From assembly GCF_013122565.1 (NCBI RefSeq), contig NZ_CP053258.1: a stretch of DNA of 64,000 nucleotides. One strand, 5' to 3'. The notes below the pieces were generated by a model. That model searched no databases, was not told where the DNA came from, and was given only the letters and a program-made list of their open reading frames with translations. Numbering within the stretch: the stretch's first letter is position 1; the number at the start of each line of letters is the position of its first letter. Source of the stretch: Escherichia coli. Its GTDB lineage: Bacteria; Pseudomonadota; Gammaproteobacteria; Enterobacterales; Enterobacteriaceae. The translations under genes and the position numbers were made by a program. Shown here piece after piece: positions 18,852 to 24,786 of this stretch.

Positions 18852-19760
18852 ATGAATACAGATACGTTTATGTGCAGCAGCGACGAAAAACAGACCCGCA
18901 GCCCGCTGTCGCTGTATTCGGAATACCAGCGGATGGAGATTGAGTTTCGCGCACCGCATATCATGCCCACCAGCCACTGGCATGGTCAGGTCGAAGTGAA
19001 TGTGCCTTTCGATGGCGATGTGGAATACCTGATCAACAATGAAAAAGTGAATATCAATCAGGGACATATCACGCTGTTCTGGGCCTGTACACCGCACCAA
19101 CTAACAGATACCGGAACCTGTCAGAGCATGGCGATTTTTAATCTGCCGATGCATCTGTTTCTCTCCTGGCCGCTGGATAAGGACCTGATTAACCACGTCA
19201 CTCACGGCATGGTGATCAAATCACTGGCTACACAGCAACTTAGCCCGTTTGAAGTGCGCCGCTGGCAGCAGGAATTGAACAGTCCGAATGAGCAAATTCG
19301 CCAGCTCGCCATTGATGAAATTGGCCTGATGCTCAAGCGATTTAGCCTCTCTGGCTGGGAACCGATTCTGGTCAATAAAACCTCGCGCACACACAAAAAC
19401 AGCGTCTCGCGCCATGCGCAATTTTATGTTAGCCAGATGCTGGGCTTTATTGCCGAAAACTATGATCAGGCGCTGACCATCAACGATGTGGCTGAGCACG
19501 TCAAACTTAACGCCAACTATGCAATGGGGATATTCCAGCGGGTCATGCAATTGACGATGAAACAGTACATTACCGCGATGCGCATCAACCACGTTCGCGC
19601 GTTACTGAGCGATACCGATAAAAGTATTCTCGATATTGCCCTGACGGCAGGCTTTCGTTCAAGTAGTCGTTTTTACAGCACGTTCGGCAAATATGTCGGC
19701 ATGTCGCCGCAACAATACCGCAAACTTAGCCAACAGCGCCGCCAGACGTTTCCCGGCTAA
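18852..19760 (+). CDS. melR: AraC-family melibiose operon activator
   Basis: 302 aa; C-terminal AraC-type HTH pair; divergent from melA. Confidence 0.9.
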   Translation: MNTDTFMCSSDEKQTRSPLSLYSEYQRMEIEFRAPHIMPTSHWHGQVEVNVPFDGDVEYLINNEKVNINQGHITLFWACTPHQLTDTGTCQSMAIFNLPMHLFLSWPLDKDLINHVTHGMVIKSLATQQLSPFEVRRWQQELNSPNEQIRQLAIDEIGLMLKRFSLSGWEPILVNKTSRTHKNSVSRHAQFYVSQMLGFIAENYDQALTINDVAEHVKLNANYAMGIFQRVMQLTMKQYITAMRINHVRALLSDTDKSILDIALTAGFRSSSRFYSTFGKYVGMSPQQYRKLSQQRRQTFPG

Positions 19761-19958
19761 AGACGATATCAGTATCAGCCAAAAAAATAGTTTAGCCGTC
19801 GATAATAAGCAGTGAAAATAATTTAAAATAATCACATAACATATTGTTTATAAAAACAAATATTTCAAAAATGTTTGTTTTTCACGCGCTTTACAGCCCG
19901 AAAAGGCCGGAAGATACTTGCCCGCAACGAAGATTCCTTCATAACCGGGTAAGCAATG

Positions 19959-22226
19959 ATGAAAGTATTAATTGTTGAAAGCGAGTTTCTCCATCAAGAC
20001 ACCTGGGTCGGTAACGCCGTTGAGCGTCTGGCAGATGCTTTAAGCCAGCAAAATGTTACCGTGATTAAATCCACCTCCTTTGATGATGGTTTTGCCATTC
20101 TCTCTTCAAACGAAGCCATTGACTGCCTGATGTTCAGCTATCAAATGGAACATCCGGACGAACATCAAAACGTCAGACAATTGATCGGTAAGCTTCATGA
20201 GCGCCAACAAAACGTGCCGGTCTTCCTGTTGGGCGATCGGGAAAAAGCCCTCGCCGCAATGGACCGGGATCTGCTGGAGCTTGTCGATGAATTCGCCTGG
20301 ATTCTGGAAGATACCGCCGACTTTATCGCCGGACGCGCCGTTGCCGCGATGACACGCTACCGCCAGCAGCTGTTGCCGCCACTGTTCAGCGCGCTGATGA
20401 AATATAGCGACATCCATGAATATTCCTGGGCTGCGCCAGGCCACCAGGGCGGCGTTGGTTTTACCAAAACACCCGCCGGACGTTTCTACCATGACTACTA
20501 TGGTGAAAATCTGTTCCGCACCGACATGGGCATCGAACGAACTTCCCTCGGTTCTTTGCTTGACCATACTGGCGCATTTGGCGAAAGCGAAAAATATGCT
20601 GCACGCGTATTTGGTGCCGATCGCTCCTGGTCGGTAGTCGTCGGTACTTCCGGCTCTAACCGCACCATCATGCAGGCTTGCATGACCGATAACGATGTCG
20701 TGGTCGTTGACCGTAACTGCCATAAATCCATCGAACAAGGCCTGATGCTGACAGGCGCGAAACCGGTCTACATGGTGCCAAGCCGCAACCGCTACGGCAT
20801 TATCGGGCCAATCTATCCGCAGGAAATGCAACCTGAAACCTTGCAGAAGAAAATCAGTGAAAGCCCGCTGACTAAAGACAAAGCCGGGCAAAAACCGTCT
20901 TACTGCGTGGTGACCAACTGCACCTATGACGGCGTGTGTTATAACGCTAAAGAAGCGCAGGATCTGCTGGAAAAAACCTCCGATCGTCTGCACTTTGACG
21001 AAGCCTGGTACGGCTATGCACGTTTCAACCCGATCTATGCCGATCACTACGCCATGCGCGGCGAACCTGGCGATCACAACGGTCCTACCGTTTTCGCCAC
21101 CCACTCCACCCACAAACTGCTGAATGCACTGTCACAGGCCTCTTATATTCATGTACGTGAAGGTCGTGGGGCGATTAACTTCTCCCGCTTCAACCAGGCC
21201 TACATGATGCATGCCACCACCTCCCCGCTGTATGCCATCTGCGCATCCAACGACGTGGCGGTGTCGATGATGGACGGCAACAGCGGCCTGTCACTGACGC
21301 AGGAAGTGATCGACGAAGCGGTTGATTTCCGTCAGGCGATGGCGCGGCTGTATAAAGAGTTCACCGCTGACGGTAGCTGGTTCTTCAAACCGTGGAACAA
21401 AGAAGTCGTCACCGACCCACAAACCGGCAAAACCTATGACTTTGCTGACGCACCAACCAAACTGCTGACCACTGTTCAGGACTGCTGGGTAATGCATCCG
21501 GGCGAAAGCTGGCACGGCTTCAAAGATATTCCGGATAACTGGAGTATGCTCGACCCGATTAAAGTCAGCATCCTTGCTCCGGGAATGGGTGAAGATGGTG
21601 AACTGGAAGAAACCGGTGTTCCAGCGGCGCTGGTCACTGCCTGGCTTGGTCGCCACGGCATTGTGCCTACCCGCACCACTGACTTCCAAATTATGTTCCT
21701 GTTCTCTATGGGCGTAACCCGTGGGAAATGGGGGACTCTGGTTAACACCCTTTGCTCCTTCAAACGCCACTATGACGCCAACACACCGCTGGCGCAGGTG
21801 ATGCCGGAACTTGTTGAACAATATCCTGACACTTACGCGAACATGGGGATTCACGATCTGGGTGACACCATGTTTGCCTGGCTGAAAGAAAACAACCCTG
21901 GCGCACGGTTGAACGAAGCCTATTCCGGCCTGCCGGTGGCGGAAATCACCCCGCGTGAAGCGTACAACGCGATTGTCGACAACAATGTCGAACTGGTATC
22001 CATTGAAAATCTACCAGGACGCATCGCGGCAAACTCAGTTATCCCGTATCCGCCAGGAATCCCGATGCTGCTGTCTGGTGAAAACTTCGGCGATAAAAAC
22101 AGTCCGCAAGTAAGTTATTTACGCTCGCTGCAATCCTGGGACCATCATTTCCCTGGATTTGAACACGAAACTGAAGGGACTGAAATTATTGACGGTATTT
22201 ACCACGTTATGTGTGTGAAAGCGTAA
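19959..22226 (+). CDS. adiA: Biodegradative (acid-inducible) arginine decarboxylase
   Basis: ORF 19956..22226; 755 aa from the second Met; same Orn/Lys/Arg decarboxylase family as CadA; followed by adiY and adiC. Confidence 0.9.
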   Translation: MKVLIVESEFLHQDTWVGNAVERLADALSQQNVTVIKSTSFDDGFAILSSNEAIDCLMFSYQMEHPDEHQNVRQLIGKLHERQQNVPVFLLGDREKALAAMDRDLLELVDEFAWILEDTADFIAGRAVAAMTRYRQQLLPPLFSALMKYSDIHEYSWAAPGHQGGVGFTKTPAGRFYHDYYGENLFRTDMGIERTSLGSLLDHTGAFGESEKYAARVFGADRSWSVVVGTSGSNRTIMQACMTDNDVVVVDRNCHKSIEQGLMLTGAKPVYMVPSRNRYGIIGPIYPQEMQPETLQKKISESPLTKDKAGQKPSYCVVTNCTYDGVCYNAKEAQDLLEKTSDRLHFDEAWYGYARFNPIYADHYAMRGEPGDHNGPTVFATHSTHKLLNALSQASYIHVREGRGAINFSRFNQAYMMHATTSPLYAICASNDVAVSMMDGNSGLSLTQEVIDEAVDFRQAMARLYKEFTADGSWFFKPWNKEVVTDPQTGKTYDFADAPTKLLTTVQDCWVMHPGESWHGFKDIPDNWSMLDPIKVSILAPGMGEDGELEETGVPAALVTAWLGRHGIVPTRTTDFQIMFLFSMGVTRGKWGTLVNTLCSFKRHYDANTPLAQVMPELVEQYPDTYANMGIHDLGDTMFAWLKENNPGARLNEAYSGLPVAEITPREAYNAIVDNNVELVSIENLPGRIAANSVIPYPPGIPMLLSGENFGDKNSPQVSYLRSLQSWDHHFPGFEHETEGTEIIDGIYHVMCVKA

Positions 22227-23312: not shown

Positions 23313-23448
23313 TTTTTAACCTTAACGAAGAGCTATATTAATAACGGCATCAGCGATAACCCGGTCGATAATAATTCAACTATCGAATGCAGGCGTATGA
23401 TATGACGTAATTTATTGTCACGAAGCTCGCCTTCGCAGGAGTTTAATT

Positions 23449-24786
23449 ATGTCTTCGGATGCTGATGCTCACAAAGTGGGCTTAATCCCCGTCACCCTGA
23501 TGGTGTCGGGGAATATTATGGGGTCAGGTGTTTTTCTGTTACCTGCAAACCTGGCCTCCACTGGCGGGATTGCCATTTATGGATGGTTGGTGACGATTAT
23601 CGGTGCGCTGGGGCTCTCGATGGTATACGCCAAAATGTCGTTCCTCGACCCAAGTCCTGGTGGTTCTTACGCTTACGCCCGCCGCTGCTTTGGCCCGTTT
23701 CTCGGTTATCAAACCAACGTCCTCTACTGGCTGGCCTGCTGGATCGGCAATATCGCCATGGTGGTCATTGGCGTAGGATATTTAAGTTACTTCTTCCCGA
23801 TTCTGAAAGATCCATTGGTATTAACCATCACCTGCGTCGTGGTGCTGTGGATCTTCGTCCTGCTGAACATTGTCGGTCCGAAAATGATCACCCGTGTGCA
23901 GGCAGTTGCCACCGTGCTGGCGCTGATCCCCATCGTCGGGATTGCCGTATTTGGCTGGTTCTGGTTCCGGGGTGAAACCTATATGGCGGCATGGAACGTC
24001 AGCGGCCTGGGCACCTTCGGTGCAATTCAAAGTACCCTTAACGTTACGCTGTGGTCGTTCATCGGTGTGGAAAGTGCCTCCGTTGCCGCAGGTGTGGTGA
24101 AAAACCCGAAACGCAATGTCCCTATCGCCACCATTGGTGGGGTATTGATTGCCGCCGTTTGCTATGTACTTTCTACCACCGCGATTATGGGGATGATCCC
24201 TAATGCCGCACTGCGCGTTTCTGCTTCGCCATTCGGTGATGCCGCACGGATGGCGTTGGGTGACACCGCTGGGGCCATTGTTTCCTTCTGCGCAGCTGCG
24301 GGTTGCTTAGGTTCACTGGGCGGCTGGACGTTGCTGGCGGGTCAAACGGCGAAAGCCGCTGCCGATGACGGACTGTTCCCACCGATTTTTGCCCGTGTAA
24401 ATAAAGCGGGTACGCCAGTGGCGGGGCTGATTATCGTCGGTATTTTGATGACCATCTTCCAGCTCAGCAGCATTTCACCAAACGCGACCAAAGAGTTCGG
24501 TCTGGTTTCTTCCGTCTCGGTCATCTTTACACTGGTGCCATATCTTTACACCTGTGCGGCGTTACTGCTGCTCGGCCACGGTCACTTTGGTAAAGCACGC
24601 CCGGCATATCTGGCTGTTACTACCATTGCCTTCCTCTACTGCATTTGGGCCGTGGTGGGGTCCGGGGCGAAAGAGGTTATGTGGTCATTTGTCACCCTGA
24701 TGGTCATCACCGCCATGTATGCGCTGAATTACAACCGGCTACATAAAAACCCGTATCCCTTAGATGCACCAATAAGCAAAGATTAA
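23449..24786 (+). CDS. adiC: Arginine/agmatine antiporter (APC family)
   Basis: 445 aa; paralogous in fold to CadB (shared N-terminal GSG motifs). Confidence 0.9.

Follow-up and report, generated by a model that had tools for sequence, protein, structure and literature searches.

An intact adiA-adiY-adiC arginine-dependent acid-resistance locus in Escherichia coli with a putative AdiZ small RNA in the adiA 3'UTR

A preliminary description of this Escherichia coli DNA had treated its arginine decarboxylase locus as a complete arginine-dependent acid resistance module of ordinary core content. Is that all the region holds, or do the spacers around its genes carry elements of their own? The window, i.e. 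the whole 64,000-nt stretch that was analysed, is E. coli chromosome (features in Table 1). With a probability of about 96%, positions 19959-24786 represent AR3, the arginine-dependent acid-resistance system of E. coli, in its canonical form, comprised of adiA, adiZ, adiY and adiC. The adiA-adiY-adiC locus is ordinary, already known, well studied and intact. The 6.4-kb stretch is found, with the same annotation, in 5417 of 5426 complete E. coli genomes, which bears out the label of core content. It is collinear and gap-free with K-12 (99.06% DNA identity) and gap-free with the best-matching genome (99.25%); divergence from every complete E. coli genome is at least 0.7% over the adi stretch. 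The order melA-melR-adiA-adiY-adiC-eptA is common to Escherichia, Citrobacter and Salmonella.

Table 1. Positions and descriptions of features in the window.
Feature	Position	Strand	Description
cadC	189-1727		intact
cadB	2093-3427		intact
cadA	3507-5654		intact
melR	18852-19760	+	AraC-family melibiose regulator, 302-aa ORF; NCBIfam MelR NF007693
melR-adiA spacer	19761-19958	+	AdiY-dependent adiA promoter, position predicted
adiA	19959-22226	+	biodegradative (acid-inducible) PLP-dependent arginine decarboxylase, 755 aa
3'UTR hairpins	22243-22284	+	two hairpins right after the adiA stop codon (fold, terminator scan, alignment)
adiZ (STnc1180) homologue	22284-22370	+	candidate 3'UTR-derived Hfq-type sRNA (alignment, fold)
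adiA/adiZ terminator	22344-22370	+	intrinsic; GCGCGG-CCCCACC-CCGCGC + U8
adiY upstream region	22371-22550	+	AT-rich; adiY promoter and H-NS target region (GC content, literature)
adiY	22551-23312	+	AraC/XylS-family activator, cytoplasmic pH sensor, 253 aa; Pfam HTH_AraC, HTH_18
adiY-adiC spacer	23313-23448	+	AdiY-dependent adiC promoter; identical to K-12
adiC	23449-24786	+	arginine:agmatine antiporter (APC superfamily), 445 aa
Palindrome	24811-24840	+	13-bp perfect palindrome with 4-nt loop, 25 nt past the adiC stop
PmrA/BasR box	24827-24843	+	CTTAAG-GTTGG-CTTAAT of the eptA-basRS promoter; putative site (sequence)

All three adi genes are co-oriented and lack internal stops in an ORF scan, as had been described, and no contrary evidence on their identity was found. 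AdiA scores 1705 bits against a cut-off of 1167 (NCBIfam NF011603 equivalog) and AdiC 892 bits against 574 (NF007929), while AdiY has no dedicated NCBIfam model, its best match being GadX at 154 bits, below the cut-off. Protein alignment, the check proposed at the outset, gives identity to K-12 at 754/755 residues for AdiA, 252/253 for AdiY (b4116) and 445/445 for AdiC, the single changes being V663I in AdiA and V136L in AdiY. AdiA contains the Pfam domains OKR_DC_1_N, OKR_DC_1 and OKR_DC_1_C and the S-T-H-K motif with Lys386, and its residues 1-755 match the solved E. coli structure (PDB 2vyc) end to end; an alternative start of its ORF lies one ATG earlier, at 19956. Residues 1-445 of AdiC match PDB 3lrb, 5j4i, 3ob6 and 3l1l. 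The AdiY residues His34, His57, His60, Glu41, Pro91 and Met142, checked against PMC12826058, are all present.

The module had been placed at 18852-24786. Its end, the adiC stop codon, stands; its start does not. Position 18852 was rejected as the start of adiA, being the ATG of melR, and adiA starts 1.1 kb further on. That span holds four genes, taking in melR and the melR-adiA spacer besides the three adi genes. MelR (635.8 bits against a cut-off of 253) is identical to K-12 MelR at 302/302 residues (100%), is annotated as melR in matching genomes, and belongs to the divergent melibiose unit, outside the adi module. Neighbouring melB, which K-12 carries 2 kb upstream of melR, is deleted here.

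Published biochemistry and pH-sensing studies indicate how the module would operate. AdiA, which is PLP-dependent and forms a decamer in the solved structure, would decarboxylate cytoplasmic arginine to agmatine and CO2 with one proton used per turnover, and AdiC would bring in arginine from outside in exchange for agmatine from within, so that the cytoplasm would lose a proton with each cycle. The adiA mRNA is expected to be monocistronic, ending at the terminator. AdiY, encoded between the two genes behind an AT-rich, H-NS-silenced promoter of its own, would sense a drop in cytoplasmic pH when His34 and His60 become protonated, and would then bind and activate the separate adiA and adiC promoters, not its own. 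In E. coli, AdiY binds PadiA at low pH (PMC12826058; PMC2984483) and does not bind its own promoter (PMC12826058), and adiY is under direct H-NS control (PMC2984483). The low GC content of adiY and its upstream region (0.36 at 22250-22749, against 0.50-0.56 in adiA and adiC) fits such control. Binding of PadiC was recorded by SPR at pH 6.0 (PMC12826058), in contrast to an older gel-shift study in which it was not seen (PMC2984483). The sole plus-strand sigma-70-like match in the melR-adiA spacer, TTTACA-17-GATACT at 19890-19918, is of consensus level only. Promoter-like matches in the promoter scan are not enriched over shuffles (7 against 8.5 +/- 3.4 expected), so that the promoter positions are unproven.

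Hairpins had also been reported after adiA and adiC. Both were found, although each is more than had been described: the one after adiA is also the 3' module of AdiZ, and the one after adiC overlaps a PmrA/BasR box. The earlier interpretation was incomplete rather than wrong, including melR and missing AdiZ and the BasR box. Terminator-like sites number 13 in the region, against 6.9 +/- 2.4 in shuffles. Downstream of adiA, the terminator scan returned the stem GCGCGG/CCGCGC at 22344-22362 followed by T8 up to 22370. The stem is unchanged in 20/20 sequences from Escherichia, Citrobacter and Salmonella, and near-identical terminators lie 3' of adiA in Kluyvera, Yokenella, Hafnia and two further Enterobacteriaceae. 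Together with the preceding U-run this terminator is an Hfq-binding module and the conserved 3' end of AdiZ. Between it and the adiA stop codon lie a first hairpin at 22243-22270 (GGCGUAAU...AUUACGCC) and a second at 22271-22284 (GCCU...AGGC), which might protect the 3' end of processed adiA mRNA. By alignment the pair is Escherichia-specific; C. amalonaticus and C. sedlakii have a hairpin of different sequence at the same place, and Salmonella has none there. A G at 22254, in the loop of the first hairpin, occurs in 0/5410 genomes.

Salmonella AdiZ/STnc1180 has been described as a cleavage product of the adiA 3'UTR (Kanda et al., Nucleic Acids Res 2025, PMC12746102). The E. coli counterpart would be the final ~85-90 nt of the adiA mRNA, released, as in Salmonella, by an RNase E cut at a U-run and stabilised by Hfq. 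Its 5' end is placed by analogy with the Salmonella processing site, at UUUU (22286-22289); the U-run at the presumed RNase E site is 4 U long, half the 8 U of Salmonella. The AdiZ body consists of the stem GAGUAUGGCA/UGUCAUACUU round a ~35-nt A/U-rich loop, followed by the terminator, and folds at -21.1 kcal/mol (z = -2.7). When it is aligned with the Salmonella and Citrobacter adiA 3'UTRs, TTGCTGCA...TGTCATAC(C)TTTTTGCGCGG...CCGCGCTTTTTTT shows little or no variation; the 3' half is invariant in the three genera and the 5' half cluster-specific, in agreement with the published pattern. Salmonella AdiZ is a repressor of pykF, ptsG and dmsA, and the same action in E. coli would tie decarboxylase induction to altered sugar uptake, glycolysis and anaerobic respiration. 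In Escherichia another sequence stands in place of seed 2, which targets ptsG in Salmonella, and the Escherichia 5' seed CUUUUGAGUAUGG is predicted to be complementary to the ptsG ribosome-binding region. This base pairing suggests that ptsG control may be retained in Escherichia via a seed other than that of Salmonella, and it is the sole non-textbook lead at the locus.

A plain three-gene locus, in which the hairpins are mere terminators and the Escherichia adiA 3'UTR is functionless, AdiZ being a Salmonella/Citrobacter innovation or non-functional here, would accommodate several of these observations, although it seems unlikely. Salmonella seed 2 is unconserved in Escherichia; adiZ has neither a RefSeq annotation nor an Rfam family match; its stem lacks covariation support, consensus folding returning the invariant terminator alone; and expression, processing and targets of AdiZ have been shown only in Salmonella, with no such evidence for E. 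coli found in the literature searched. A bare terminator, however, requires just a GC stem and a U-tract, whereas three genera share an invariant 50-nt 3' half, with UUGCUGCA and UGUCAUAC(C)UUUUU as unpaired stretches in it, in a spacer that otherwise diverges freely. Moreover, the AdiZ region of the 3'UTR is retained, unannotated, at at least 90% identity in 5410/5426 E. coli genomes, and the Escherichia-Shigella homologues form a published cluster of their own (PMC12746102). AdiZ is thus probably produced and active in this E. coli. Far less probable still is that the module, though present, has decayed functionally in this strain through regulatory mutations or through V663I or V136L. The locus does differ by the margin given above from every complete E. 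coli genome, AdiA and AdiY carry one change each, and gene loss does happen nearby, as the deletion of melB attests. Both substitutions are nevertheless conservative, this AdiY is identical to RefSeq WP_001217059.1 of strain AHM8C212RI, and its pH-sensing histidines are intact. Only 1 of 25 nucleotide differences from K-12 in adiA and 0 of 8 in adiC alter the protein, a signature of purifying selection. The adiY-adiC spacer has 0 differences from K-12 and 0 from AHM8C212RI, and the 3 differences from K-12 in the melR-adiA spacer leave the promoter-like hexamers untouched.

The palindrome after adiC is likely the adiC terminator in Escherichia, with a weak U-tract (AAUUUUGCUU). A less likely reading is that it is purely protein-binding, a set of tandem/inverted CTTAAG repeats for BasR/PmrA, and that adiC transcription runs into eptA-basRS. 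The box matches the consensus CTTAAG-N5-xTTAAT (PMC3973317) perfectly, overlaps the 3' arm of the hairpin, and by its sequence would belong to the neighbouring downstream eptA-basRS unit. What is conserved across genera is CTTAAG-N5-CTTAAT and one further upstream (C/A)TTAAG hexamer: both box hexamers are invariant in Escherichia, Citrobacter and Salmonella, the 5-bp spacer varying in Salmonella only. The palindrome itself is not conserved; its 5' arm is eroded in Salmonella, and what look like the real adiC terminators of other genera are GC-rich hairpins of their own, located upstream of the box. The poor U-tract points the same way. Against this, the Escherichia stem is far above chance stability (-23.2 kcal/mol, z = -4.7; 0/200 shuffles as stable), the 103-bp spacer contains no other hairpin, and terminator and binding-site functions are compatible.

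Compared with adiA-adiY-adiC of K-12 MG1655 (b4117, b4116, b4115; AR3), the genes agree in order, orientation and length and the spacers correspond, with 0 indels over 10.5 kb; the terminator and AdiZ core are identical, and melA-melR and eptA-basRS flank the locus in both. The ~1% nucleotide differences are nearly all synonymous or intergenic, and MG1655 has melB, which this window lacks. In the Salmonella adiA-adiZ-adiY-adiC locus (PMC12746102), adiZ likewise lies directly 3' of the adiA stop, with the same terminator and preceding U-rich Hfq module, the same UGUCAUAC 3' arm paired with a GAG(G/U)AUGGCA 5' arm, and, within seed 3, a common UUGCUGCAAA(A)CAA stretch. Escherichia differs by ~57 additional nt and the two hairpins between stop codon and AdiZ core, by UUUCAUAAAAAUU in place of the ptsG-targeting seed 2 (CUGAGUAUU), and by G13U in seed 1.

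The window holds a second, paralogous decarboxylase/antiporter system, as had been noted: cadC-cadBA (AR4, 189-5654), with AdiA/CadA identity of 36% over 740 aa and AdiC/CadB identity of 38% over 447 aa. Both systems pair a proton-consuming Orn/Lys/Arg-family decarboxylase with an APC-family substrate/product antiporter. However, CadC is a membrane-bound, ToxR-like sensor of periplasmic pH, whereas AdiY is a cytoplasmic AraC-type sensor (PMC12826058), and the antiporter gene leads the cadBA operon, while adiA and adiC, which lie on either side of their regulator gene, each have a promoter of their own. Further afield, in Xenorhabdus, Vibrionaceae and Shewanella, an AdiA orthologue (66-74% identity) adjoins an APC antiporter. 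Xenorhabdus adiA-adiC is without adiY, adiC following adiA by 20-70 bp, too closely to fit adiY or AdiZ in between; the transporter of Vibrionaceae and Shewanella lies upstream of adiA and is just 34-37% identical to AdiC.

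The arginine-dependent acid resistance locus of the window is complete, and the hairpin following adiA appears, from comparison with Salmonella, to be more than a terminator; the locus would be best written adiA-adiZ-adiY-adiC. The adi locus is already known, is among the best characterised of E. coli, and its three genes show no departure from K-12, and its significance as a genome-scan finding is small. The adiA-adiZ-adiY-adiC reading would fill an annotation gap, RefSeq/PGAP and Rfam 15 being still without the sRNA. The preliminary description had a three-gene module beginning at 18852. 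The ORF that begins there is MelR (636 bits against NCBIfam NF007693, cut-off 253; 100% identical to K-12 MelR), so that the start coordinate given was that of melR; adiA starts 1.1 kb further on, the span holds four plus-strand ORFs instead of three, and it needs to be trimmed by 1.1 kb. At the other end, the adiC stop codon coincides exactly with the end of the span. Apart from the start coordinate the observation is real, and the reading placed on it is right but incomplete.

Coordinates of genes and other features in and around the adi locus and elsewhere in the window
Feature	Coordinates	Strand	Remark
cadC	189-1727		intact; passes NCBIfam model
cadB	2093-3427		intact; passes NCBIfam model
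cadA	3507-5654		intact; passes NCBIfam model
yjdF/melA junction	17191-17217		melB absent
melR	18852-19760	+	302 aa
candidate promoter site	19890-19918
adiA	19956/19959-22226	+	756/755 aa
ORF antisense within adiA	20106-21113	-	335 aa
first hairpin after adiA stop	22243-22270
second hairpin after adiA stop	22271-22284
putative AdiZ core	22284-22370
adiA terminator	22344-22370		118-144 nt past stop codon
adiY	22551-23312	+	253 aa
adiC	23449-24786	+	445 aa
palindrome after adiC	24811-24840		begins 25 nt past adiC stop
additional CTTAAG hexamer	24819-24824
predicted PmrA/BasR box	24827-24843		47 nt before eptA ATG
SECIS_2	52753-52807	+	87 bits
ORF next to SECIS_2	52809-54488		559 aa

All three adi genes are intact and co-oriented, as had been described, and protein alignment bears this out. 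Relative to K-12 MG1655 the region is collinear and reversed, differing at 84 positions over 8.9 kb with 0 gaps. AdiA is identical to its K-12 counterpart at 754/755 positions (V663I), AdiY at 252/253 (V136L) and AdiC at 445/445. Changes are nearly all synonymous: only one of the 25 nucleotide differences in adiA and none of the 8 in adiC alters the protein, from which purifying selection is evident. AdiA scores 1705 bits against the NCBIfam equivalog NF011603 (cut-off 1167), with lysine and ornithine decarboxylase models below their own cut-offs. Its three Pfam domains follow the layout of the Orn/Lys/Arg decarboxylase family, to which it belongs, with N-terminal wing, PLP core and C-terminal domain, and it aligns to the solved E. 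coli structure 2vyc over 1-755. Lys386, the PLP-binding lysine in the numbering of that structure, is present in the STHK motif (383-386). AdiC, of the APC superfamily, scores 892 bits against the equivalog NF007929 (cut-off 574), with CadB, PotE and histidine/histamine antiporter models below their own cut-offs; it matches 3lrb, 5j4i, 3ob6 and 3l1l over its full length and is 100% identical to the crystallised 3lrb/5j4i protein. AdiY, an activator of the AraC/XylS type, carries two HTH_AraC repeats and matches the RefSeq protein of strain AHM8C212RI at every residue; NCBIfam holds no dedicated AdiY model, and the top-scoring one, GadX, stays below its cut-off. The minus-strand ORF antisense within adiA is regarded as a mechanical ORF.

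Decarboxylation of arginine to agmatine by AdiA uses up one cytoplasmic proton, and AdiC swaps internal agmatine for external arginine. This mechanism is established knowledge, and its prerequisites are confirmed in the window. The window also carries the intact lysine-dependent cad genes and thus, as claimed, two paralogous decarboxylase/antiporter systems, with 36% identity between AdiA and CadA and 38% between AdiC and CadB.

Description of the locus as ordinary core content agrees with its distribution. A 6.4-kb melR-adi-eptA stretch has matches in 5417/5426 complete E. coli genomes, is at least 80% covered in 5402, and bears melR, adiA, adiY, adiC and eptA annotation in all matches listed, with a top identity of 99.3%. 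In the adi region the window is at least 0.7% divergent from every complete E. coli genome, so its source lineage is absent from that collection. Of the 5455 places matching the melR-adi region, 3 lie on records classed as plasmids, where a core chromosomal locus is not normally found; these may be chromids, large co-integrates or mis-assigned replicons. A pseudogene, a decaying locus or a horizontally acquired island was rejected in view of the 0 indels and nearly all-synonymous changes relative to K-12 and of synteny in three genera. GC content does drop from 0.50-0.56 in adiA and adiC to about 0.42 across adiY and to 0.36 at 22250-22749. Reading this trough as a sign of recent transfer was rejected, low GC being a known feature of H-NS targets; adiY is under direct H-NS silencing (PMC2984483), which the trough fits.

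In K-12, induction by acid and low oxygen and arginine-dependent survival at pH 2.5 are documented (PMC12826058; PMC10746267). AdiY becomes protonated at low cytoplasmic pH and then binds the adiA and adiC promoters (PadiA and PadiC) and not its own; His34 and His60 were recently demonstrated to be its cytoplasmic pH sensor (PMC12826058). His34, His57, His60, Glu41, Pro91 and Met142 are all present in the window. Ribo-seq showed adiA to be translationally up at pH 4.4, the cause being unexplained, and YdeO represses PadiA (PMC10746267). The genes adiA, adiY and adiC are each transcribed separately and do not form an operon. Consensus promoter matches in the window were not enriched over shuffles, and a single candidate site is put forward (Table). 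The 11-mer GTCGATAATAA occurs exactly in the regions upstream of both adiA (19798-19808) and adiC (23364-23374). It is missing from PadiC of other Escherichia species, and outside Escherichia it is absent from both promoters except for one copy with 1 mismatch in the adiA promoter of C. sedlakii. It is not proposed as an AdiY operator and is probably a chance or strain-level resemblance.

Upstream of the locus, the melibiose neighbourhood differs from that of K-12. At the yjdF/melA junction, K-12 has a stretch (4343267-4344934) running from the melA-melB spacer through melB and a REP-containing spacer into the final 6 nt of yjdF; in its place the window carries 23 bp of filler with no match in the deleted K-12 segment. 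The yjdF product is consequently 216 aa long (209 in K-12), with a 4-nt overlap at the melA stop codon. With melA and melR intact, the melibiose regulon lacks its dedicated permease. This melB-less junction is shared by 1264/5426 complete E. coli genomes as well as by Escherichia sp. E1V33, and both E. whittamii and strain SCPM-O-B-8794 are collinear with the window across it. In Salmonella, melB is apparently present, and yjdF apparently absent between fumB and melA. In E. albertii NBRC 107761 (AdiA locus L006, about 5790-5794, corresponding to window 17247-19750) melA and melR are both missing, and almost nothing separates yjdF from the region upstream of adiA.

Rfam scans gave further features elsewhere in the window. 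SECIS_2 directly precedes a 559-aa ORF, as would be expected for a selenocysteine UGA in a formate dehydrogenase gene, probably fdhF; the apparent ORF break at this place is thus not a pseudogene. At the gathering threshold there were also four naRNA4/CssrE elements, of REP type, and STnc630 (178 bits), which lies beside the eptA-basRS unit at its basS end; they are listed together at 28268-28433 (-), 34100-34276 (+), 55276-55346 (-) and 56667-56737 (-).

Terminator-like hairpins had been described after adiA and after adiC. Both are present, and each seems to be more than that name implies, the first belonging to an AdiZ/Hfq module and the second overlapping a PmrA/BasR box. After adiA, two further hairpins follow the stop codon directly, and then a terminator of the form GCGCGG-N7-CCGCGC plus U8. 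In Salmonella, the adiA 3'UTR is cut by RNase E at a U-run to give AdiZ (formerly STnc1180), an Hfq-dependent sRNA of about 90 nt (Kanda et al., NAR 2025, PMC12746102). Its accumulation needs AdiY, Hfq and RNase E, and it represses pykF, ptsG and dmsA through the seeds G10-A19, C28-U36 and G37-U60 (seeds 1, 2 and 3), respectively (PMC12746102). Homologues fall into Escherichia-Shigella, Citrobacter and Salmonella clusters, in which the terminator/U-rich Hfq module is nearly perfectly conserved and the 5' parts vary (PMC12746102).

The corresponding module is present in the window as UACUUUUUGCGCGG-N7-CCGCGCUUUUUUUU, its stem invariant in 20/20 sequences. The 3'UTR alignment agrees with the published picture: UUGCUGCAAACAAAAAUGUCAUACUUUUUGCGCGGCCCCACCCCGCGCUUUUUUUU of the window varies little or not at all among Escherichia, Citrobacter and Salmonella, and the sequence upstream of it is cluster-specific. 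The putative AdiZ core folds into a stem (GAGUAUGGCA/UGUCAUACUU; stem 1), an A/U-rich loop and the terminator (-21.1 kcal/mol, z = -2.7). Stem 1 draws on single-sequence folds (z = -2.1 to -2.7) and inspection by eye only, in which its 5' arm varies among clusters yet can still pair with the invariant UGUCAUAC; consensus folding of 20 AdiZ homologues recovered the invariant terminator alone, with a covariation term of 0. At the position aligned with the presumed RNase E site, the window reads CCUUUUGAG, with 4 U (22286-22289) versus 8 consecutive U in Salmonella. Of the seeds, Escherichia lacks seed 2, has G13U in seed 1 and retains part of seed 3. Seed identity would thus mark the Salmonella form and not the family, the part outside the terminator being described as cluster-specific (PMC12746102). 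The adiA 3'UTR is found in 5410/5426 E. coli genomes and is without annotation there. Rfam 15 scans of 18500-25000, at the gathering threshold and at E <= 1, gave no RNA family in the locus, and no expression data for E. coli AdiZ were found in the literature searched. The 144-nt 3'UTR has no 100% match among complete E. coli genomes (best 143/144); position 22254, in the loop of the first hairpin, is G in the window and T in both K-12 and the genome closest to it.

Beyond the three published AdiZ clusters, a near-identical terminator (UUUGCGCGGG...CCCGCGCUUUUUU) is found behind adiA in Kluyvera, Yokenella, Hafnia and two further Enterobacteriaceae. The adiA-adiY gap holds about 1.5-2.3 kb extra in the AdiA loci L020, L021, L048, L076 and L024 (Yokenella, Kluyvera, Enterobacter sp. 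Bisph1, Kosakonia). In Yokenella, Kluyvera and Kosakonia an ORF beginning with MILMVTKDEFLFQGV or similar starts shortly downstream of adiA; it comes directly after the conserved terminator in Yokenella and Kluyvera, and in Kosakonia no such terminator was found.

The hairpin after adiC is a 13-bp perfect palindrome (-23.2 kcal/mol, z = -4.7) with a weak U-tract. Its 3' arm and tail read CTTAAG-GTTGG-CTTAAT, a perfect predicted PmrA/BasR box, the consensus being a CTTAAG-N5-xTTAAT direct repeat (PMC3973317). The box hexamers are invariant in 12/12 sequences from Escherichia, Citrobacter and Salmonella; the sole variation falls in the 5-bp spacer and is confined to Salmonella. In Salmonella the palindrome's 5' arm is also degraded, and other genera have separate GC-rich hairpins upstream. 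The palindrome is predicted to be at least partly an operator of the eptA promoter, and it probably doubles as the adiC terminator in Escherichia. The adiC "terminator" would then share sequence with the eptA box at the border where an acid-resistance unit gives way to a lipid-A-modification unit. A further CTTAAG hexamer lies within the palindrome (Table).

One prediction from the adiA 3'UTR is the sole lead worth a bench test, namely that Escherichia AdiZ has kept ptsG as a target by means of a moved seed, to which a probability of roughly one in four is given. Conservation of the SgrS-like ptsG seed (seed 2, CUGAGUAUU) does not extend to Escherichia (PMC12746102), and the 3'UTR alignment agrees. 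The seed 1 region reads GAGUAUGGCA in Escherichia versus GAGGAUGGCA in Salmonella, and its single G-to-U change (GAGGAUGG to GAGUAUGG) creates complementarity of 13 bp, two of them G.U, between 22285-22297 (5'-CUUUUGAGUAUGG-3') and E. coli ptsG -24..-12 (CCAUACUCAGGAG). That stretch of ptsG spans the Shine-Dalgarno, and it is where both SgrS and Salmonella AdiZ (ptsG C-19) bind. In a post hoc test on three candidate targets, the seed 1 duplex with ptsG reached -18.4 kcal/mol, a value reached by 0.25% of 90-nt background windows from the 64-kb window, and the whole sRNA body gave z = -3.8 (0/300 shuffles as good). The validated Salmonella seed 1-pykF duplex stands at -12.2 kcal/mol, and the same change weakens pykF complementarity in E. 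coli (-8.4 kcal/mol). Against ptsG pairing, the seed lies inside stem 1 and costs 9.1 kcal/mol to open, versus 2.3 for Salmonella seed 2, and E. albertii (AAGUAUGG) and the cryptic-clade strain SCPM-O-B-8794 (GAGUAUGA) each lose one pair. Whole-sRNA duplexes with E. coli pykF (z = -0.01) and dmsA (z = -0.9) were no better than shuffles, and no claim is made for either as a target.

In a comparison of AdiA loci from 80 species representatives, the window's gene order, adiA-adiY-adiC on one strand flanked by melR and eptA, was found to be part of an order melA-melR-adiA-adiY-adiC-eptA kept in Escherichia, Citrobacter and Salmonella. Xenorhabdus differs, with adiA-adiC present without adiY. Were the ptsG prediction true, a re-targeted seed would link arginine-dependent acid resistance with glucose uptake in E. 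coli, a clean natural case of sRNA target retention by seed turnover. The prediction goes beyond the literature and is cheap to test, and with it the Salmonella AdiZ story would extend to E. coli.
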